Part shown: in pieces, positions 3,564-21,023 of the stretch
Layout: every line of letters starts with the position of its first letter
Position numbering within the stretch: the stretch's first letter is position 1
Sequence record: MF158044
From: Shigella phage Sf18
Length of the DNA stretch: 64,000 nt
Direction: 5' to 3' (one strand)
Position numbers and translations under genes: made by a program
Notes under the pieces: model-generated
Databases searched by the model: none
What the model was told of the DNA's origin: nothing
The model's input: the letters and a program-made list of their open reading frames with translations, nothing else

Positions 3564-5708
3564 ATGGTTAAAGTACAAATTATTAAGAAAGACGGTTCAC
3601 TGGAAAACCCAAATGTAAATAAAATCGTCGAAGCAGTTACCAAGTCAGCTAATAGAGTTGGCTACAAAGAGTTACCACTAGAAGTTATCCATGCTCTTGA
3701 ATCAGCCTTTATGAGACTGCTTGTCAGAGCAACTAATCAGAATGCTATGCTCATCTCTGTAGATGATGTTCACAGTATTGTGGAAGGAACTCTGGCAGAG
3801 GTAAACCATGAAATCTATGAGTCATATTCAACCTACAGAAACTATCGTAAAGAGGTTGCACAGAATTGGGATGAACTTTACCAGAAAACTAAAGACACAC
3901 TCTTCTTAGGTGACCGTGAGAATGCTAACTTTGATAGTAGCTTAATCTCTACAAAAGGTTCAATCATCCGTGGGTATCTGACAAAAGAAATCTTTAAGCA
4001 GTATCACTTGACACCAGAAGAAGCAAGTGCTATTGAAGATGGTTTCATTTATATCCATGACTTAAGAGATTTAATCTTCGGTGGTATTAACTGTTGCTTG
4101 TTTGACATTGGAAGCGTCTTGAAAGGTGGTTTTGAAATGTCCGGCATTGAATACTGCGAACCAAAGTCTGTACTTTCAGCTTTACAGGTTATTGGTGACG
4201 TTGTACTCTCAGCAACTGCACAGCAATTTGGTGGATTTACTATCCCAGAGATTGACAAGGTTCTTGTGCCATATGCTAAGAAGTCTTTTGAGTATCATCT
4301 GGAGAAAGCAAAGCAGTATAATATCACAGGGAGAGGTGGTGCATACCACTATGCTAAAGAGCAACTCCAGATTGAACTGACCCAAGGTTTCCAATCTCTG
4401 GAAATGAAGCTAAACACTGTCCCTTGCAGCCGTGGTGACTTTGCATTTACAACATTAACATTTGGTTTACTTGAACCAGATATGGCTAGTGAAGACAACC
4501 GATTGCAATTTATGATTGCGAAGACTATTCTTGATGTGAGAATGAATGGTCAAGGTAAGTCTAAGAAGCCTGTTGTATTCCCTAAACTGGTTTACATTTA
4601 TGATGAGACAAGACATATGCTAGACCCTTGGCAGGGAACTCTTTATGACAAAGCTATTGAGTGCTGTTCTAAAGCTATGTACCCAGACTTCTTAAGTGTT
4701 TCTGGTCATGGTTCTGTTGCAGAAGCTTTTGAGCGTTCAGGTGCAGTCATCTCTCCAATGGGTTGCAGAGCTTTCTTATCACCATATTATGATGAAGATG
4801 GTAAAGAGTTCTACACAGGGCGAGCAAACATTGGTGCAGTATCTCTTAATCTGCCAATGATTTACAAGTATTCTGAAGAGAATTGTTTAGACTTCTGGAC
4901 AGAACTTGACAAGTATCTTGAGATGATTAGAAGCTTCCATAAAAAACGTTATGAGATGATTGCTAATATGCCAGCAAGCTCTAACCCTCTAGCATTCACA
5001 CAAGGTGGTTTGTATAAAGGTCATAAGAAGCCAACTGACAAGATTGGTTGGGATACTGTGAAATCTTTTACAGCCTCTTTTGGTGTCACTGCATTGGATG
5101 AGTTAACAGTACTTGCACAAGGTAAAAGATTACATGAGTCAGACGGTGATATTGCAAGTAAGGTTTTAAACTACCTGAATGGCAAACTGGAGCAGTTTAA
5201 ACAGGAAGATGGTTTCTTGTATGCCCTCTATGGTACACCTGCTGAGAGCCTTTGTGGTACGCAATTGAAGCAGTTTAGAAACATGTTTGGAGTTGTTAAA
5301 GGTGTATCTGATAAAGAATACTTTACAAACAGCTTCCACATGAATGTTGGTGCAGATATTACACCATTTGAAAAGCAAGACTTAGAAGAACCTTTCTTCC
5401 ATGCTTGTAATGGTGGTCATATCCAGTACGTTCGTATTGCTAATCCAGAGAATCATAAAGCTATTAGGGCTTGTGTGACAAGAGGTATGGGTAAAGGTTT
5501 CTATCAAGGTGTTAACTTTGACTTGGCAATCTGTGAGAATTGTGGTCACCGTCCAAGTGCAGATGTTGAATTGTGTCCTAAGTGCAACTCACACGATATC
5601 TCTGTGATTAACCGTGTTTGTGGTTATCTTGGCTGGACTAAGATTAAAGGTACTTCCAGAATGAATGATGCAAAAATTGCTGAAATTCAGGATAGAAAAT
5701 CTATGTAA
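3564..5708 (+). CDS. nrdD: anaerobic ribonucleoside-triphosphate reductase (class III)
   Basis: ATG with AGGAG RBS (ORF-track start 3474 lies inside terminator); C-terminal glycyl-radical motif RVCGYLG and CxxC...CxxC zinc ribbon. Confidence 0.9.
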   Translation: MVKVQIIKKDGSLENPNVNKIVEAVTKSANRVGYKELPLEVIHALESAFMRLLVRATNQNAMLISVDDVHSIVEGTLAEVNHEIYESYSTYRNYRKEVAQNWDELYQKTKDTLFLGDRENANFDSSLISTKGSIIRGYLTKEIFKQYHLTPEEASAIEDGFIYIHDLRDLIFGGINCCLFDIGSVLKGGFEMSGIEYCEPKSVLSALQVIGDVVLSATAQQFGGFTIPEIDKVLVPYAKKSFEYHLEKAKQYNITGRGGAYHYAKEQLQIELTQGFQSLEMKLNTVPCSRGDFAFTTLTFGLLEPDMASEDNRLQFMIAKTILDVRMNGQGKSKKPVVFPKLVYIYDETRHMLDPWQGTLYDKAIECCSKAMYPDFLSVSGHGSVAEAFERSGAVISPMGCRAFLSPYYDEDGKEFYTGRANIGAVSLNLPMIYKYSEENCLDFWTELDKYLEMIRSFHKKRYEMIANMPASSNPLAFTQGGLYKGHKKPTDKIGWDTVKSFTASFGVTALDELTVLAQGKRLHESDGDIASKVLNYLNGKLEQFKQEDGFLYALYGTPAESLCGTQLKQFRNMFGVVKGVSDKEYFTNSFHMNVGADITPFEKQDLEEPFFHACNGGHIQYVRIANPENHKAIRACVTRGMGKGFYQGVNFDLAICENCGHRPSADVELCPKCNSHDISVINRVCGYLGWTKIKGTSRMNDAKIAEIQDRKSM

Positions 5709-5720
5709 GTAGTTGACAAG

Positions 5721-5757
5721 GTGGTGTAGGTCTTGATAGGCTTACATCACCTTTTTT
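5721..5757 (+). terminator. rho-independent terminator after nrdD
   Basis: 11-bp stem (two G-U pairs), 9-nt loop, TTTTTT. Confidence 0.55.
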
Positions 5758-5777
5758 ATTGAGTATGGAATTAACGT

Positions 5778-6035
5778 ATGAGCTATGATTTTTGGCCTAA
5801 ATTTTGGTTATGGTTTCTTGGGATTGCATTAGTAATTCTGATAGGTTTTGCTGTGTATGACAGTTACCACACTAAGCTTTGGATGACTGCAAACCATTGT
5901 CAGCAAACGTCACAGAGTAGAAATTACCTATACTATATGACAGTCATATCAGGCAACACTACAATCATCGTCCCACAAATCGGGACAGAGTACCTGTATG
6001 TTTGTGATAACAACCAAACAATATGGTGGTATTGA
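5778..6035 (+). CDS. hypothetical membrane protein
   Basis: 85 aa ORF with N-terminal hydrophobic helix (FWLWFLGIALVILIGFAV). Confidence 0.35.
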   Translation: MSYDFWPKFWLWFLGIALVILIGFAVYDSYHTKLWMTANHCQQTSQSRNYLYYMTVISGNTTIIVPQIGTEYLYVCDNNQTIWWY

Positions 6036-8747: not shown

Positions 8748-9629
8748 ATGAAAACTACTATTCGAGTTCTACTTAATTCAAATTCCAAAGGTTCTCATCA
8801 AGAGACCTTCAACATTATCCAGTTCCCTTCTGGGGAGATTGGTGGTAACTTCTCAGAAGACTTAGTAGACTTTGCTGAACATGCTGCTGGTAAGATTGAA
8901 AACGTAATATTCACTGTACAAGGTTATGACAAAGACACACTCTTTGCATTGGCTATGGCTAAAGAGGCTATTGACCGTTTGATTCCTCAGAAAGCAACCA
9001 TGAAAACTGTTCTTTTTGGATTCTTACCAAATGCTCGCTATGACCGTCACATGTTTAAAGGCGATTCAGCAGCACTTAAAGTCTTTGCAAATCTTGTAAA
9101 TGCTATGGGGTTTGATGCAGTATGTGCTCTGGATACTCACAGTAATGTAGCAGAGAACTTGTTTAAGTGCTTCTACAACATCCCTCAAAAAGAGGCAGCA
9201 GTCCACTTTGCAAGTGACCCACGCATTGATTACTTAGTGGCTCCAGATGCAGGTGCAGCTAAGAAGACTGAAGAGGCTGCTAAAGAGGTTGAGAAACCTT
9301 ATATCACAATGGCAAAGGTACGAAACCTGAAAACTGGTGAAATCACTGGTATGCGAATCCTTGATGATGTAGACTTAACAGGTAAGACTGTTATGATTCT
9401 GGATGATATCTGTGATGGTGGTCGAACCTTTATCGAGGCTGCAAAGTATCTTCGTGAAGCTGGAGCAGAACGTGTAGAGCTTTATGTTACTCATGGGATT
9501 TTCTCTAAAGGTGTTGAAAATCTTCTTGACAATGGCATCGACCATATCTACACTACAGACTCACTAGGGGATGAAAAAGACCGTGGTCTTTCCCACTTCT
9601 CACAAGTGACAGTAGCAAATATTGAATAA
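8748..9629 (+). CDS. ribose-phosphate pyrophosphokinase (Prs)-like protein; candidate ADPR-pyrophosphate synthetase
   Basis: PRPP-synthetase family motifs FPSGEIGG, LPNARYDR, VAPDAGAAKK, ILDDICDGGRT, THGIFS. Confidence 0.75.
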   Translation: MKTTIRVLLNSNSKGSHQETFNIIQFPSGEIGGNFSEDLVDFAEHAAGKIENVIFTVQGYDKDTLFALAMAKEAIDRLIPQKATMKTVLFGFLPNARYDRHMFKGDSAALKVFANLVNAMGFDAVCALDTHSNVAENLFKCFYNIPQKEAAVHFASDPRIDYLVAPDAGAAKKTEEAAKEVEKPYITMAKVRNLKTGEITGMRILDDVDLTGKTVMILDDICDGGRTFIEAAKYLREAGAERVELYVTHGIFSKGVENLLDNGIDHIYTTDSLGDEKDRGLSHFSQVTVANIE

Positions 9630-9673
9630 CAACTTTAGGGGCTGAAAAGCCCCACTTTGAGAGAGATAAAAAG

Positions 9674-11491
9674 ATGACTAAATCAATCTATGCAGTACCA
9701 GCAGGTCTTAATGCAGATGCTTATAAAGCGGGTCATATCTATCAGTATCCAGATGCTACACAGTATCTTATGTTGAACTTAACACCTCGTGGAGATAAAT
9801 GGTTTAACTCTCCGTTAGAGATTGATGGTGTTGTAGCTTTTGGTATTCAGCGTTTTGTAAAAGACTATCTGGTAGACCACTGGAATGCAACGTTCTTTGA
9901 ACGTGATAAGAAAGAAGCCATTGACGAAATCTTGGAAATCATGAATGGTGTCCTTGGTGCAGATGCTATTGGTCGTCAACATTGGGAAGAACTTCATGAC
10001 TTGGGTTACCTGCCTGTTGAAGTCTACTCTGTAGAGGAAGGTACAATTGTCCCTATGCGTGTCCCGATGATTGTCTTCAAAAACACTGTAGAAGGATTCC
10101 ATTGGGTAGCTGGTTATCTTGAAGATGCTTTCTCTGCTGAAATCTGGAAGGCTTGTACGATTGCAACTATTGCACTGCATTACAAACGTATCTGTAAGCA
10201 ATGGGCTGATAAGACCTGTGACAATGACTTCCATTTACCTTGGCAGTGTCATGACTTTGCAATGCGTGGTATGTCTGGCTTCACAGATGATGCGTTTAAC
10301 GCAGTAGGTCACCTGACAAGTTTTAAAGGTACTGACAGCTTCCCTGCTGTATATACAGCTAAACGTGCATATGGTCAGTTTATGAATGTAGGTGAGATTG
10401 GTAACTCTGTCCCAGCTACTGAGCACTCTGTGATGTGTGCAAACATCTCATGGAACAGTCTTAACAAAGAGGTAAGTGATTGGCATCTATCGCATTCTGA
10501 CAACTTACTTGATGCAATGCGTTGGCGTGGTGAGGTAGAAACTTTCCATCGCCTTCTGACAGAAGTTTACCCAACTGGTATTGCAAGTGCCGTATCAGAT
10601 ACTTACAACTTCTGGCGTACTGTTACACAGATTCTGCCAGAGCTACGTAATGTAATTCTGAATCGTGATGGTAAGTTGGTAATTCGTCCAGACTCTGGAG
10701 ACCCTGTTCACATTGTTACAGGTTACAAAGCCATTGAATGGGAAACTGCTAAGTCAATGTTCTATAAGCACATGAAAGAGCTTGCACCGAACAATACACA
10801 TCTGCATGACACAATCTTGAATTGTGAAATGTCTGATATTGGCTTTGGGTTCTCTGCTTGGCTAATCTCTGAAGGTTATGAGATGGTTGTTGATAAAGAA
10901 GATTTTGAATCTGCTGATACAATCAACCTTATTACTGCTCAGAAGACTGGACAGTTTACTGTGAAGCGTATGCTGACAGCAGAAATTGACGGAGCTATCC
11001 ACACGCTGTATAACATCTTTGGTGGCACTGTTAACTCCAAAGGGTACAAAGTACTGGATGAGCACATTGGGCTAATCTACGGTGATTCTATCACTCTGGA
11101 AAGGGCTAATGATATTCTGTCACGTCTTGCTGATAAAGGTTTTGCAAGTTCTAACGTAGTGTTTGGTGTAGGTTCATACACCTATCAGTACCTGACTCGT
11201 GACACCTTTGCATTTGCTGTTAAAGCAACTCTTGCACAGATGGATGGTCAAGAAATTATGCTGGCTAAAGACCCTAAAACTGACAGCGGTCTTAAGAAGT
11301 CTGCTTTTGGTGGAGTTGTCCCTATGTGGGATGGTGACAAGCTGGTAGCTGTAGATGGTTTTGGCTTTGCAGAGTTTGAAGGTGCAATTGACAATTGTCA
11401 TAGTGCTTTGAAACTGGTATTTAGCAACTCGCAACCTTATGGTTACGTTAACCTGCGTGATGTTCGAAATACTATTGACAAGCAACTTTAA
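9674..11491 (+). CDS. nicotinamide phosphoribosyltransferase (Nampt)-like protein; candidate nicotinamide ADPR transferase
   Basis: NAMPT motifs DAYKAGHIYQYP, HDFAMRGMSG, FKGTDS, EHSVM, VSDTYNFW, IRPDSGDP; 605 aa, longer than typical ~490 aa. Confidence 0.85.
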   Translation: MTKSIYAVPAGLNADAYKAGHIYQYPDATQYLMLNLTPRGDKWFNSPLEIDGVVAFGIQRFVKDYLVDHWNATFFERDKKEAIDEILEIMNGVLGADAIGRQHWEELHDLGYLPVEVYSVEEGTIVPMRVPMIVFKNTVEGFHWVAGYLEDAFSAEIWKACTIATIALHYKRICKQWADKTCDNDFHLPWQCHDFAMRGMSGFTDDAFNAVGHLTSFKGTDSFPAVYTAKRAYGQFMNVGEIGNSVPATEHSVMCANISWNSLNKEVSDWHLSHSDNLLDAMRWRGEVETFHRLLTEVYPTGIASAVSDTYNFWRTVTQILPELRNVILNRDGKLVIRPDSGDPVHIVTGYKAIEWETAKSMFYKHMKELAPNNTHLHDTILNCEMSDIGFGFSAWLISEGYEMVVDKEDFESADTINLITAQKTGQFTVKRMLTAEIDGAIHTLYNIFGGTVNSKGYKVLDEHIGLIYGDSITLERANDILSRLADKGFASSNVVFGVGSYTYQYLTRDTFAFAVKATLAQMDGQEIMLAKDPKTDSGLKKSAFGGVVPMWDGDKLVAVDGFGFAEFEGAIDNCHSALKLVFSNSQPYGYVNLRDVRNTIDKQL

Positions 11492-15905: not shown

Positions 15906-15930
15906 GGGGCTGCTTCGGCAGCCTTTTTTA
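15906..15930 (+). terminator. rho-independent terminator after rIIB-like gene
   Basis: GGCTGC-ttcg-GCAGCC then TTTTTTA. Confidence 0.6.
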
Positions 15931-15990: not shown

Positions 15991-16539
15991 ATGAAGAAAT
16001 TTGTTTTAGGTTTGTGCTTATTCTTTACAGCACATTTAGCTACAGCATCTGACTGTCCAGAGCTTACAATCAGCCAGAAAGTTAATATGTTAAAAGCATA
16101 TAACTATGGCGAAGGGCAGATGGGAAAAGGTTGGGGAATCCCTTTAGCAGCTATAGCCTTACAAGAGTCACAATTAGGTGTCATGTTAGAAAATAAAAAG
16201 ACTCATGATTATGGTGTTTTCCAGAATCACTTGAAGACTGTTGTAAAGCGTAACAAGGTATCTCCAAAGGTTGCTAAGAAGAAGCTAGTAAGTGACTTCC
16301 ATTACTCAGCGAAAGAGGCTCATAAAGAGCTATTATTCTGGACTAAGGTTCATGGCAACCCAGATGGAAAGTACTCTATGAAGCGTGTCCTAGCTTCTTA
16401 TAATGCTGGTTACAAATACAAGATTCCAAAGGCTAGACAATACTCTCAAGATGTGTACAATAACATGAAACTGCTTGCTCAATGTGAGTTTGCAACAAAC
16501 ATTAAAAAGGTAAAATATGAGCGAATCAAAACAATTTGA
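15991..16539 (+). CDS. secreted lytic transglycosylase (SLT-domain)-like protein
   Basis: Signal peptide MKKFVLGLCLFFTAHLATA; motifs ALQESQLG, GVFQ, ASYNAGYKY resemble SLT catalytic core. Confidence 0.55.
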   Translation: MKKFVLGLCLFFTAHLATASDCPELTISQKVNMLKAYNYGEGQMGKGWGIPLAAIALQESQLGVMLENKKTHDYGVFQNHLKTVVKRNKVSPKVAKKKLVSDFHYSAKEAHKELLFWTKVHGNPDGKYSMKRVLASYNAGYKYKIPKARQYSQDVYNNMKLLAQCEFATNIKKVKYERIKTI

Positions 16540-17212
16540 CATGGTTCTGTGTCATGCTTATGATATTAAGCCACTTGATTTAGATATCAGTTCTGCAAGT
16601 TGGTCAGATATTACTAAAGCTGACTTTGCAGATACAGCAAGAAATGTTGTATGTAGTTTTGAAGACTTTCATTCAACAAAGACACAGGTTCCTTGTCAGG
16701 ATTTGCTAACAGGTAAAACTGTGTATGTTGGTCGTAACAGCCTTATCTTGGTTGCAAAGAACTTGGAAGAAAAACGTAAAATGGTCTTAGCAGACATTGA
16801 CGGTGTTCTTACAAGCTTTAATAAGGAGCTTAATGCAACTCTGCTAACTGATGGTACTTACTCACAGTACACTGATTTGGTAGAATCTTGCAGAGCTAAA
16901 CCAACATATGTTTTTAACATTCTGTGTGGTATATCAAGAAATGCTGATATAGGATTCTTAACTGCTCGTGGTGAATCACAAAGAGTTGTCACACATCTTT
17001 TCCTGAATGAGAATGTAGACAGTGATTTCCTACTGTTTATGCGTGGATTTGGTGACAATGAGATTAGTGCAGAAAGTTTGAAAGTTCGTATGCTTCAGTC
17101 TTGCATTCTACCTTACTATGATGTAGTATGCTTTATAGAAGATACAGTGAAGAACGTGGCAAAGGTAGAAAGAATCTTACCACACATCAAAACAATGCTT
17201 GTTAAAAACTGA
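16517..17212 (+). CDS. HAD-superfamily phosphatase-like protein
   Basis: HAD motif I-like DIDGVL; RBS before 16517; N-terminal ~90 aa unassigned. Confidence 0.45.
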   Translation: MSESKQFDMVLCHAYDIKPLDLDISSASWSDITKADFADTARNVVCSFEDFHSTKTQVPCQDLLTGKTVYVGRNSLILVAKNLEEKRKMVLADIDGVLTSFNKELNATLLTDGTYSQYTDLVESCRAKPTYVFNILCGISRNADIGFLTARGESQRVVTHLFLNENVDSDFLLFMRGFGDNEISAESLKVRMLQSCILPYYDVVCFIEDTVKNVAKVERILPHIKTMLVKN

Positions 17213-18248: not shown

Positions 18249-18517
18249 TGACAGAGAAGAATGAAACATTTTTTGTGGAAGGTTATCTTCTGTTACCAAG
18301 ACCAAGTAACACTTACATGAGATTTGACATTATGCCAACGGTTATGGATGATGTAACTTGTCACATCTTTATGCAGGGTGTTTCTGCACAACTTAAACAT
18401 GTTGGAAGAGATTGCAAAATACGTGTTGACAACCATCCTGAAATCAACGAGAATCACTACACATGGTTCGGGGAAGATTCTAAAGAAATCTATGCAGTCC
18501 TTAAAACGAGGAAGTGA
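18248..18517 (+). CDS. hypothetical protein
   Basis: 89 aa ORF. Confidence 0.4.
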   Translation: MTEKNETFFVEGYLLLPRPSNTYMRFDIMPTVMDDVTCHIFMQGVSAQLKHVGRDCKIRVDNHPEINENHYTWFGEDSKEIYAVLKTRK

Positions 18518-18526
18518 GGTTTAGTG

Positions 18527-18853
18527 ATGCAACTAGATGGTAAGAATTATGTAGCCGTCTTTTCAGACGGTGAGAAAGAAATTGGTACAGCACAAGTCTG
18601 TCACAGTGGTAAAGAGTTTCTCTATGGGGTTGTTGCATTCATTGGTACTCGTGGAGATATGAAATCTTTTAAAGATTGTGTTGACAAGCTTGAAGAATCC
18701 ATAGAGAATCATTGGTGTCTGATATGGCTTAATGCAGAGAATGTTAAAGAACGCTATGCAAAAGTTGGTATCCATATTGAAAGCATCGAACATGTTGACC
18801 TGTTTGAGCTAACTGAAAAGGTGATGTATGAAAGCAATTCTGGTAAGAAGTAA
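18527..18853 (+). CDS. hypothetical protein
   Basis: ATG at 18527 (ORF-track GTG 18524). Confidence 0.4.
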   Translation: MQLDGKNYVAVFSDGEKEIGTAQVCHSGKEFLYGVVAFIGTRGDMKSFKDCVDKLEESIENHWCLIWLNAENVKERYAKVGIHIESIEHVDLFELTEKVMYESNSGKK

Positions 18854-19064
18854 AGTTACACGTCAAGTGTTAGTAGGGGCTATATTTGTTGGACGGGATG
18901 AGGTAATACCATTCATGAACCCCTTGATTCACTACAACTTCAAGATAGGGGATTTTAAACACTACCTGAATCCTCTGCTTACAAGATTAAGCTTAGAAGA
19001 GTTTAAGTGTAATTACTCTTATGAAGGTGATACATACTTCCAAGAGGTAATATCAAATGGCTGA
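18828..19064 (+). CDS. hypothetical protein
   Basis: 78 aa ORF overlapping previous gene end. Confidence 0.35.
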   Translation: MKAILVRSKVTRQVLVGAIFVGRDEVIPFMNPLIHYNFKIGDFKHYLNPLLTRLSLEEFKCNYSYEGDTYFQEVISNG

Positions 19065-19257
19065 TTTCTGCACTAAGTGTTCTGTTGAGATGTTTGGAAA
19101 AGACACAGGGGACTTAAAAGGCCTCTTTACAAAAGCAGAGTTTGAAGCTGGTTCAGCAATGCCAGTAATCTGTGAAGGTTGTGGTGCTTTATGGGTAGAC
19201 CATGAAGGTAACCGAGTTAAACCATCTGAAGATAACGAACGTTGGGAGCATTACTAA
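19057..19257 (+). CDS. small Cys-rich (zinc-ribbon-like) protein
   Basis: 66 aa; CxxC ... CxxC spacing. Confidence 0.35.
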   Translation: MADFCTKCSVEMFGKDTGDLKGLFTKAEFEAGSAMPVICEGCGALWVDHEGNRVKPSEDNERWEHY

Positions 19258-19258
19258 T

Positions 19259-20053
19259 ATGGGTATCGTAAAAATTATTAAAGGTGATATCTTTAAAGAC
19301 TTTGATGGTAAGAAATTTGATATCATTGGTCACGGTTGTAACTGCATGAACTTGATGGGTGCAGGTATTGCAGCAACAATTGCTAAACGCTACCCAAAAG
19401 CTTATGAAACTGACGCTGAAGTTTATGCTACAGTAGGTGGTGAAAATCATAACCCTAAGCATCTAATGCTTGGTAACATCTCTGTAGCACGTTTTAAGCA
19501 GGGTCGAATTGCTAACCTTTACACTCAGGTTATCACTGGCAAAGATGCACGATACAACGCCTTAGAAGCAGCTTTACAGCGTCTTAACAACTACTGTAAA
19601 GTTAATCAACTTAAGAAAGTTGGGCTTCCGATGATTGGTGCAGGGATTGGTGGTCTTGATAGCATGGCTGTACTGTCCATTATCAACCAGACTATGAAGG
19701 ATGTTGACGTTTATATGTATGTCTATGAAGATAAGATGTACAGTCAGTTGACTAGTCCTGTTACTGGTTGGGAGAACTTCAGTGAGCCTCAATACTTTGA
19801 TGGTGTTGCTGTGGTAGGCAAGGATAAAGTTACCCTCAAGGTGAAGCGTAATGGCAAGGTACACACCAGTTACCCTCCGGTTGAGAAGTACAATCGAAGT
19901 AACGCTCAAGTTACCCACCCGTTACAAGGTCACCACCACAGAGCGGTAACGTTTAGCGATGATGCAAGTGTATATATCAATGCGACTACAGAAGAGTTTG
20001 CAGAAGATTATATCACACATGAAAACGTAAACTATGTTGAAGCACGTAACTAA
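19259..20053 (+). CDS. macro-domain (ADP-ribose binding/processing) protein with C-terminal extension
   Basis: ATG at 19259; motifs KGDIF, DIIGHGCNCMNLMGAGIAATI, GLPMIGAGIGG align to the macro-domain core. Confidence 0.65.
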   Translation: MGIVKIIKGDIFKDFDGKKFDIIGHGCNCMNLMGAGIAATIAKRYPKAYETDAEVYATVGGENHNPKHLMLGNISVARFKQGRIANLYTQVITGKDARYNALEAALQRLNNYCKVNQLKKVGLPMIGAGIGGLDSMAVLSIINQTMKDVDVYMYVYEDKMYSQLTSPVTGWENFSEPQYFDGVAVVGKDKVTLKVKRNGKVHTSYPPVEKYNRSNAQVTHPLQGHHHRAVTFSDDASVYINATTEEFAEDYITHENVNYVEARN

Positions 20054-20107
20054 TAAGTTACCCAGATAAACATAGACAAGCCCTCCAAAGTTTGAGTTTA
20101 AAATCTC

Positions 20108-20310
20108 AGGTAAGGGGGGCTTTTTCATTTTAAATTTGTGCAGGTATAGTTGCATAGAACTCTGGACAGATTTCTTTAGCTGAACTCCAAAGGGAAAATT
20201 CATTTCAAATTTGTGCAGGTTTAGACTCCAAAGGGATTTTTCATTTTCAATCTGTGCAGATGCAGTTGGACTCCAAAGGGAAAATTCATTTTCAGTTTGT
20301 GCAGGTAGGT
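20108..20310 (+). repeat. four tandem ~40-50-bp direct repeats ending in TTGTGCAGG
   Basis: Units at ~20108, 20186, 20224, 20268 share CTCCAAAGGGAAAATTCATTTT-A--TTGTGCAGG; C-rich tract follows at 20323-20352. Confidence 0.6.
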
Positions 20311-20479
20311 AGCTGTAGGAAACCAGCCCCACCACCCCCTCTTACTCCCCTTCCTCCCAAAAGTCAAGAGAAAAATTTGTAGAGAACTCAAAAATAATTC
20401 TTGACTAGATTCCTGTTTTAGTGTATCCGCATACGTGCGTTCTATTCACGAAGCATCGAAAATATTTTTAAAAATTTTG

Positions 20480-20508
20480 TTGACTTCATAAATCCAGTCT
20501 TATAGTAT
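20480..20508 (+). promoter_or_regulatory. sigma70-like promoter at start of small-gene island
   Basis: TTGACT-N17-TAGTAT. Confidence 0.55.
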
Positions 20509-20557
20509 TTGCATCAACGGGAAACATCCCAACAATCCTAAACTGGAGAATCTAAAA

Positions 20558-20764
20558 ATGTTATATCAACGTGAGTTAATGATTGTTGACAACAACAAAA
20601 CAAATAAACGTCGTTTCTATATGCTAATTTGTGATGTTTGGCAACGTATCTCAGAAAAGGATTTTGATGAATATGTTGATACGTCAATCAGGTCTGATTG
20701 TTATTTGACAACTCACACAAGGCATTACACAAGGCATACAGCCATTTATTACTATAACGTTTAA
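20558..20764 (+). CDS. hypothetical small protein (cassette gene)
   Basis: ATG preceded by conserved CCTAAACTGGAGA leader and TTGACT-N17-TAGTAT promoter. Confidence 0.5.
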   Translation: MLYQRELMIVDNNKTNKRRFYMLICDVWQRISEKDFDEYVDTSIRSDCYLTTHTRHYTRHTAIYYYNV

Positions 20765-20775
20765 AAGGCTTGACA

Positions 20776-20934
20776 ATGGTTAAAGAAAACGATGTAATAC
20801 AATACAAAGATTTAGACGGATACCCAAAAATTGGTAAAGTCTTCTATCTCTATAAGTCTGCTATGGGTAATGATTGTATAGCCCTTACAAATGGCGACAA
20901 AATAACCATGAAAGATTTTATAAAAATTAATTAA
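20776..20934 (+). CDS. hypothetical small protein (52 aa)
   Basis: ORF below ORF-track cutoff, weak RBS, fills gap between cassette genes. Confidence 0.3.
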   Translation: MVKENDVIQYKDLDGYPKIGKVFYLYKSAMGNDCIALTNGDKITMKDFIKIN

Positions 20935-20943
20935 ATAAAGTGC

Positions 20944-20972
20944 TTTACATGGGGTTTAAAAGCTAGTATCTT
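20944..20972 (+). promoter_or_regulatory. type-A cassette promoter with embedded dyad
   Basis: TTTACA-N17-TATCTT; GGGGTTT...AAGCCCC inverted repeat spans spacer and -10. Confidence 0.5.
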
Positions 20973-21023
20973 AAGCCCCCAGATAAAGAGCTTTACCAAC
21001 AATCCTAAACTGGAGAATCTAAA

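Follow-up and report, generated by a model that had tools for sequence, protein, structure and literature searches.

Macrodomains are common in phages (found in 41% of myoviruses, PMC9503650), and a concrete role has become known only recently, i.e., that of AdfM against DarTG2. Here, we consider a gene for a macrodomain protein in Shigella phage Sf18 (sequence record MF158044), of which a stretch of 64,000 nucleotides (nt), referred to below as the window, was analyzed. The protein is composed of two domains, an N-terminal macrodomain that belongs to the same family as Tk.4 of phage T4, and a C-terminal domain for which relatives were detected only within its own protein family. The macro domain itself has been annotated before, and the function of the family is known from publications of 2025-2026. 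New findings are the two-domain variant found in the phage subfamily Ounavirinae, with an orphan C-terminal domain that is under selection and diverges rapidly, and the absence of the catalytic Lys of DarG and TARG1 from the entire Tk.4 branch.

The gene and its N-terminal macrodomain

The region around the gene (18500-21000) is 97-98% identical over its full length (megablast) to the corresponding region of Shigella phages Henu11, Sf13 and Sf15, and 91-98% identical to that of Citrobacter phages BSwM KMM2, KMM4, Michonne and Mordin. These relatives belong to the genus Mooglevirus, subfamily Ounavirinae (Felix O1-like myoviruses), and the window is from a Mooglevirus-like phage of this subfamily. 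In Sf13 the orthologous product, gp59, carries the label "phosphatase" and the note "macro domain-containing protein; pfam01661", i.e., both the gene and its macro domain were already annotated in public records. The family phrog_335, whose "phosphatase" label originates from yeast Poa1p, covers the whole 264-residue protein (E 2e-106).

The coordinates of the gene, its domains and other features of the window are collected in Table 1. The ATG at 19259 is considered to be the start codon because a longer, in-frame alternative at 19202, which was rejected, overlaps the open reading frame (ORF) located upstream, and because all homologues begin at the equivalent Met. This Met is the start in 20 of 20 two-domain homologues and in all 29 copies found on viral contigs (52-94 kb in length, mostly 81-94 kb, as expected for genomes of the Felix O1 type), where the protein begins with MGIVK, or with MAIVK, MSIVK and similar sequences.

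Table 1. Positions of the genes, domains and sequence elements discussed in the text, numbered from the first nucleotide of the window.
Feature	Position	Strand	Basis or remark
Phosphoribosyl pyrophosphate (PRPP)-synthetase-like gene (Pribosyltran and Pribosyl_synth domains)	8748-9629	+	Pfam
Nampt gene, 605 residues (NAPRTase and NAMPT_N domains)	9674-11491	+	Pfam
Orthologue of Sf13 "polynucleotide kinase" (gp67)	16517-17212	+	
Upstream 66-residue ORF	19057-19257	+	stop codon 19255-19257
Shine-Dalgarno-like GGGAG	19244-19248	+	10 nt 5' of the start codon; read from sequence
Two-domain macro protein, coding sequence (264 residues and TAA stop)	19259-20053	+	ORF list, translation
Start codon ATG; stop codon TAA	ATG at 19259; TAA at 20051-20053	+	sequence
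Macrodomain, residues 1-157 (Poa1p/TARG1/DarG branch, Tk.4/AdfM type)	19259-19729	+	Pfam, profile, Foldseek
Q90 codon, at the position of the TARG1 catalytic Lys (K84)	19526-19528	+	profile alignment, high posterior probability
Orphan C-terminal domain, residues 158-264	19730-20050	+	no detectable relatives outside its own protein family
Inter-domain motif N173-x-S-x-P177-x-x-F180-D-G182	19775-19804	+	alignment, per-column conservation
Four direct repeats	20103-20306		
C-rich tract	20327-20352		
Sigma-70-like promoter	20480-20508	+	TTGACT, 17-nt spacer, TAGTAT
Cluster of 25 tRNA genes	40075-45003	+	ARAGORN

The motifs from which the initial annotation had identified a macro domain are all found in the protein (KGDIF at residues 8-12, DIIGHGCNCMNLMGAGIAATI at residues 21-41 and GLPMIGAGIGG at residues 122-132). 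The key residues are D10, the segment H25-G-C-N28-C, the G34-A-G-I-A loop, N86-L-Y-T-Q90 and the P124-x-I-G-A-G-I-G-G loop. The G34-A-G-I-A and G127-A-G-I-G-G loops, which are invariant or nearly so, are likely to bind the diphosphate of ADP-ribose, while D10, found in 19 of 20 homologues, is the likely adenine contact. The Pfam family Macro (PF01661) matches residues 25-141 over profile positions 2-117 of 118 with 32.9 bits (E 7e-8); since the gathering score is 22, this match is far beyond chance. A family profile made from 21 homologues matches human TARG1/OARD1 with E 1e-13 and DarG macrodomains with E 5e-10 and 4e-9. The best match to a single sequence in the PDB is Poa1p (E 3e-5), covering residues 4-60, i.e., ~57 residues.

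An AlphaFold model of the full-length protein, obtained from the alignment of homologues, has a mean predicted local distance difference test (pLDDT) score of 86.8 and a predicted template-modeling score (pTM) of 0.87. In this model the macrodomain is a three-layer alpha/beta/alpha macro fold. A Foldseek search of the PDB returned 240 matches at E<=0.001, and the best 50 of these 240 are all macrodomains or macro-scaffold designs. The closest solved structure is that of TARG1, with a template-modeling score (TM) of 0.82-0.84 (target-normalized) at only 22% sequence identity, followed by DarG from T. aquaticus and M. tuberculosis, and then by Poa1p (TM 0.74). The initial identification as a macro domain was thus right, both by sequence (Pfam and profile) and by predicted fold; the structural comparison had been set beforehand as a test that could refute it, and the model has the macro fold.

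Tk.4, AdfM and a proposed role against DarT2

A tblastn search identified the macro half of the protein in 2,680 phage records, while the full length was covered in only ~250. The single-domain relatives of the macro half include Tk.4 of the T-even phages. Tk.4 of T6 is 40% identical to the window protein over residues 3-131 (E 7e-19) and also matches phrog_335 (E 1e-64). In an alignment with Tk.4 from T4 and T6, 18 columns are invariant, including H25-G-C-N28-C, M33, G36, A38, P46, N86-L-x-T-Q90, P124, G127 and G129. The macro half is a member of the Tk.4/AdfM family, as seen from the shared PHROG 335, identities of 32-40% and the same signature residues, i.e., HGCNC, NLYTQ (where Gln replaces the Lys of DarG) and PxIGAGIG. 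Furthermore, both genes come from virulent myoviruses of enterobacteria, where their surroundings are early or accessory genes. The two proteins differ in that Tk.4 is composed of one domain of 154-155 residues, whereas the window protein harbors in addition a folded C-terminal domain of 107 residues, as well as an insertion of ~7-10 residues near residues 60-70.

The resistance of T4 to DarTG2 was traced to tk.4 by transposon screening and a clean knock-out, and the product was named AdfM by the authors; the knock-out is sensitive to DarTG2, and DarTG2 was the single, specific hit obtained with Tk.4 (bioRxiv 10.1101/2025.11.20.689424). Protein gp104 of the chimallivirus PhiKZ, likewise named AdfM, was shown in vitro to clear DNA of the ADP-ribose attached by DarT2, and it protects the phage (PMC13309987). 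Like the window protein, PhiKZ AdfM is an orphan phage macrodomain of the DarG-like branch, and its removal of DarT2-made ADP-ribose is the role proposed below for the window protein. There are also differences. PhiKZ AdfM keeps the DarG catalytic pair, N23/K78, while the window protein has, by the alignment with TARG1, a Gln at the position of the Lys. In addition, the PhiKZ protein enters the phage nucleus by import, while the Ounavirinae are not chimalliviruses, the group with a described phage nucleus.

The antitoxin DarG2 (NCBIfam NF048014, PADLOC PDLC02990) is the best-scoring defense model for the macro half. Its macro part is the sole meaningful match among the curated bacterial families of NCBIfam (E 1e-14), and DarG is the sole defense-system model of PADLOC that matches the protein (E 6e-15). 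DarG2 and the window protein have the same layout, i.e., a macrodomain followed by a second domain. However, the match is limited to model positions 2-153 of 338 and 5-147 of 329, respectively, and the score of 54.6 bits does not come near the NCBIfam equivalog cut-off of 250 bits. The window protein lacks the catalytic Lys, a DarG-like C-terminal DarT-binding domain and an adjacent darT; the neighbors of the macro gene are small phage genes, with no Pfam match in the five flanking ORFs scanned. Among the best 30 of 82 plasmid matches there is no annotated DarG.

Both T4 Tk.4 and PhiKZ AdfM counter DarT2 or DarTG2, and for this reason the window protein would, by homology, most likely serve to reverse or neutralize DarT2-type ADP-ribosylation of phage DNA. 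The initial annotation had suggested that the protein might counter ADP-ribosylating toxins, which would be relevant on DarTG hosts, and the genetics of Tk.4 together with the shared PHROG and signature residues make this the best-supported reading. More specifically, we propose that the protein is an AdfM/Tk.4-type macrodomain directed against DarT2, together with an accessory domain specific to this lineage; the latter would have no catalytic function, would lie against the macro core and would modulate targeting. We assign this model a probability of about one half. According to the model, the gene, located in the early region of the phage, would yield a two-domain protein in which the macrodomain would bind the ADP-ribose moiety such that D10 faces the adenine, the two Gly-rich loops hold the diphosphate, and H25 and N28 adjoin the distal ribose. 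The macrodomain would then remove, or otherwise neutralize, the ADP-ribose that DarT2-type toxins put on thymidines in single-stranded phage DNA, and upon removal of the adduct replication could proceed on DarTG2 hosts. The C-terminal domain, packed rigidly on the macro core, would tune the targeting to a partner or substrate.

A number of observations weigh against this model. First, in the profile alignment Lys84 and Asp125 of TARG1 correspond to Gln90 and Gly131 of the window protein; an invariant Asp, D134, is found three residues past G131. All 20 two-domain homologues have this Gln at position 90, and so do Tk.4 of T4 and T6. The extension of this replacement from TARG1 to DarG is based on the alignment with TARG1 together with the equivalence of TARG1 K84 and T. 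aquaticus DarG K80, which we take to hold. Because the catalytic Lys is missing, as in Tk.4, the Tk.4 branch, including the window protein, cannot, to judge from the aligned residues, use the Lys-dependent mechanism of TARG1 and DarG, which leaves its chemistry unexplained. Second, among phage macrodomains in vitro activity is known only for PhiKZ AdfM, and in this protein the Lys is still present (K78) (PMC13309987), while hydrolysis by T4 Tk.4 is assumed, not demonstrated (bioRxiv 10.1101/2025.11.20.689424). Third, anti-DarTG2 activity is known genetically for Tk.4 only, and no report was found in the literature of the window protein, or of any Felix O1-type phage, acting against DarTG2. Finally, Poa1p, the best single-sequence match in the PDB, is an ADP-ribose-1''-phosphate phosphatase, which leaves room for a small-molecule substrate, and the role ascribed to the C-terminal domain has negative evidence as its sole basis.

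The replacement of Lys84 and Asp125 by Gln and Gly would also fit a macrodomain that is a non-catalytic ADP-ribose reader, i.e., one that binds modified DNA or protein, or sequesters a ligand, with the C-terminal domain as the effector or recruitment module. Recurrent loss of catalysis is described for other macrodomain lineages (PMC10221186), and a second domain of unassigned function is consistent with such an arrangement. However, the residues that are usually found with catalysis, i.e., N28, H25 (the equivalent of Poa1p His23) and both Gly-rich loops, do not vary within the family, and the C-terminal domain displays neither conserved polar or catalytic residues nor a recognizable effector fold. 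A stoichiometric reader would moreover be a weak counter to an enzymatic toxin, and we consider this alternative to be very unlikely.

The similarity to Poa1p points to another alternative, in which the protein would process a small ADP-ribose derivative such as ADP-ribose-1''-phosphate, O-acetyl-ADP-ribose or an NAD+-derived signal (glycocyclic ADP-ribose, gcADPR, or histidine-ADP-ribose, His-ADPR, of Thoeris), maybe beside the NAD+ salvage genes of the phage. The two proteins have in common the N-terminal motif H-x-C-N-C...G-x-G-I-A, which includes the equivalent of His23 (mutated in PDB 6LFS). Of the Poa1p residues probed by mutation, H23 is kept (as H25), while S30 and F152 correspond to L32 and G131, respectively. 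The absence of the Lys that DarG and TARG1 use on macromolecular substrates is in line with a small substrate, and the phage has Nampt and the PRPP synthetase (Prs), a polynucleotide kinase (by the Sf13 annotation) ~2 kb upstream, and 25 tRNA genes. However, the sequence similarity to Poa1p is limited to the first ~57 residues, Nampt and Prs do not use ADP-ribose, and the phage has no evident pathway that produces ADP-ribose-1''-phosphate, whose sources (Tpt1/KptA, RNA ligase and 2H phosphoesterase) are not annotated in Sf13. The homologue Tk.4, moreover, has a DarTG2 phenotype. We consider processing of a small derivative to be unlikely.

Human TARG1 acts on ADP-ribose linked to protein, DNA and RNA. 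The promiscuity of this branch suggests a further alternative, in which the macrodomain would reverse ADP-ribosylation of targets other than those of DarT2, i.e., of protein or RNA (mRNA modified by CmdTAC-type systems, or targets of other toxins), with the C-terminal domain selecting the target. The presence of a macro domain in 41% of myoviruses (PMC9503650) is wider than any single defense system explains, and a fast-evolving extra domain fits target recognition. On the other hand, T4 Tk.4, which is the sole characterized member of PHROG 335, gave a single, specific result with DarTG2, DarG is the only defense model that matches the protein, and T-even phages, which carry Tk.4, are still sensitive to CmdTAC (PMC11618068). 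We consider a target other than that of DarT2 to be somewhat unlikely.

An orphan C-terminal domain

The C-terminal domain is confined to Felix O1-like phages. It is fused to the macrodomain in all 29 loci found on viral contigs, where the protein is composed of 259-264 residues. A second, shorter subtype is found in related phages of ~86 kb and is homologous to the first as seen using hhalign (94.7% probability, E 6e-8). The gene is real and selection acts on both of its halves. The median ratio of nonsynonymous to synonymous substitution rates (dN/dS) is 0.31 (maximum 0.66) for the C-terminal domain and 0.13 for the macro half, i.e., the C-terminal domain is under purifying selection, but with a weaker constraint than the macro half. 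The mean pairwise identity is 30% for the C-terminal domain and 58% for the macro half, the former being lower in 99% of the pairs, and the domain diverges at ~2 times the rate of the macro half.

The predicted fold is composed of a short helix, six beta-strands and a terminal helix. In the full-length model, the pLDDT of 10-residue blocks of the domain is mostly 83-91, with dips to 73 and 70, and modeled alone the domain reaches a pLDDT of 81 and a pTM of 0.72. The pTM of 0.87 obtained with the full-length protein suggests that the two domains form one rigid body.

In the initial annotation, the C-terminal extension of ~110 residues was described as unrecognized, and searches of Pfam, NCBIfam, PADLOC and PDB sequences, as well as deeper searches, agree with this description. 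The domain has no match in any of these four collections and, among the PHROGs, matches only phrog_335; its fold has no similarity to structures in the PDB. Against predicted viral structures, Foldseek matched the domain only to the orthologue of the Felix O1-like phage SUSP2. When 1.8 billion representative proteins were searched exhaustively using phmmer, one genuine cluster with the C-terminal domain was found. A few giant Ig-like and WD40 repeat proteins returned by the same search were rejected, because their E-values sum 4-14 weak repeat matches of which a single unit scores 6-8 bits. Neither a search with the alignment profile of the domain nor one with the subtype-2 domain returned any match, and the latter missed even its own source protein; both empty results seem to reflect that the word index is of limited use with short queries. 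A search for related loci with subtype 2 found none.

Within the C-terminal half, the motif at residues 173-182 (Table 1) is the sole well-conserved stretch besides Y239, and only N173, P177, F180, G182 and Y239 are well conserved in the domain. These residues are of a structural type, which argues against a second catalytic site. The domain is most likely a non-catalytic accessory module and it may tune the targeting to a partner or a substrate. For nucleic-acid binding or DNA mimicry there is no consistent signal, the net charge of the domain ranging between -6 and +6 among family members. A DarG-like C-terminal domain by homology was rejected, because the C-terminal parts of the two DarG models were not matched and no similarity in fold was found. 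It is conceivable, but doubtful, that the domain binds a host protein, most plausibly DarT2 itself. The protein would then follow, by convergence, the two-pronged logic of DarG, i.e., enzymatic reversal combined with neutralization of the toxin, using an unrelated and previously unseen fold, and the two barely alignable subtypes of the domain would stem from an arms race against toxin variants that differ.

The locus extends the AdfM/Tk.4 family to phages of the Felix O1 type, which are used in typing and therapy of Salmonella, E. coli and Shigella, and it predicts that these phages are resistant to DarTG2. The general picture is unchanged by the locus, but from a comparison with Tk.4, which has a single domain, one could learn how specificity is gained by an orphan enzyme that resembles an antitoxin.

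Neighboring genes and downstream elements

The initial annotation noted that the macro gene is found in the same genome as an NAD+ module, which is indeed present in the window at 8748-11491. The same PRPP-synthetase/Nampt pair is annotated in Sf13, and the pair resembles phage NAD+-reconstitution modules known to counter NAD+-depleting defenses. The module is located ~7.8 kb upstream of the macro gene, with rIIA and rIIB in between. The further suggestion that ADP-ribose from NAD+ cleavage is processed in conjunction with this module gained no specific support, given this distance and that neither Nampt nor Prs uses ADP-ribose. No gene specifically linked to the macro protein was found among the neighbors. 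A substrate source encoded by the phage itself, i.e., an ADP-ribosyltransferase or an RNA-repair pathway of its own, was rejected because none is annotated in Sf13; an ADP-ribosyltransferase, Tpt1/KptA, RNA ligase and 2H phosphoesterase are all missing from the annotation of that genome.

The stop codon of the upstream 66-residue ORF is located 1 nt before the ATG of the macro gene. The encoded protein is zinc-ribbon-like, with two CxxC pairs, and has no Pfam match. This ORF adjoins the macro gene in all 29 subtype-1 loci and is absent beside the subtype-2 gene. In the two most distant loci (L033 and L034) it is 74-75% identical to that of the window, compared with ~43% for the macro protein. 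A conserved functional partner was nevertheless rejected, because the whole block from the polynucleotide kinase gene onwards is syntenic and because the ORF is absent beside the subtype-2 gene. In the 86-kb subtype-2 phage (locus L002, contig logan:SRR33471206_14612), a homing-endonuclease-like gene with HNH_3/AP2 domains at 5694-6023 stands in place of the zinc-ribbon-like ORF and overlaps the start of the macro gene. The orthologue of the Sf13 "polynucleotide kinase", found ~2 kb upstream of the macro gene, has no Pfam match at E<=0.01, and its counterpart in L002 has only a weak HAD_PNKP match; the kinase annotation may be doubtful.

The clustered tRNA genes are typical of Felix O1-like phages. 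In Sf13 an additional tRNA-Tyr is annotated, which ARAGORN does not report in the window.

Immediately 3' of the macro gene, in a gap at 20054-20557 (500 nt), there are four direct copies of a ~43-nt element with the core ACTCCAAAGGGAAAATTCATTTnnAAnTTGTGCAGGT, at spacings of 75, 41 and 45 nt, followed by the C-rich tract. The 22-nt core has 5 matches in the window, compared with 0 expected by chance, the fifth being a degenerate copy at 15927. In Sf13 the repeat stretch is annotated as a hypothetical gene on the minus strand (gp58), but the repeat structure suggests that it is regulatory, non-coding DNA. A search of 18800-21000 against Rfam gave nothing above threshold, and a scan of 18900-20800 for intrinsic terminators found none. 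The sigma-70-like promoter is located ahead of the next gene on the + strand, which begins at 20558, and points to the macro gene as the last one of a transcription unit.

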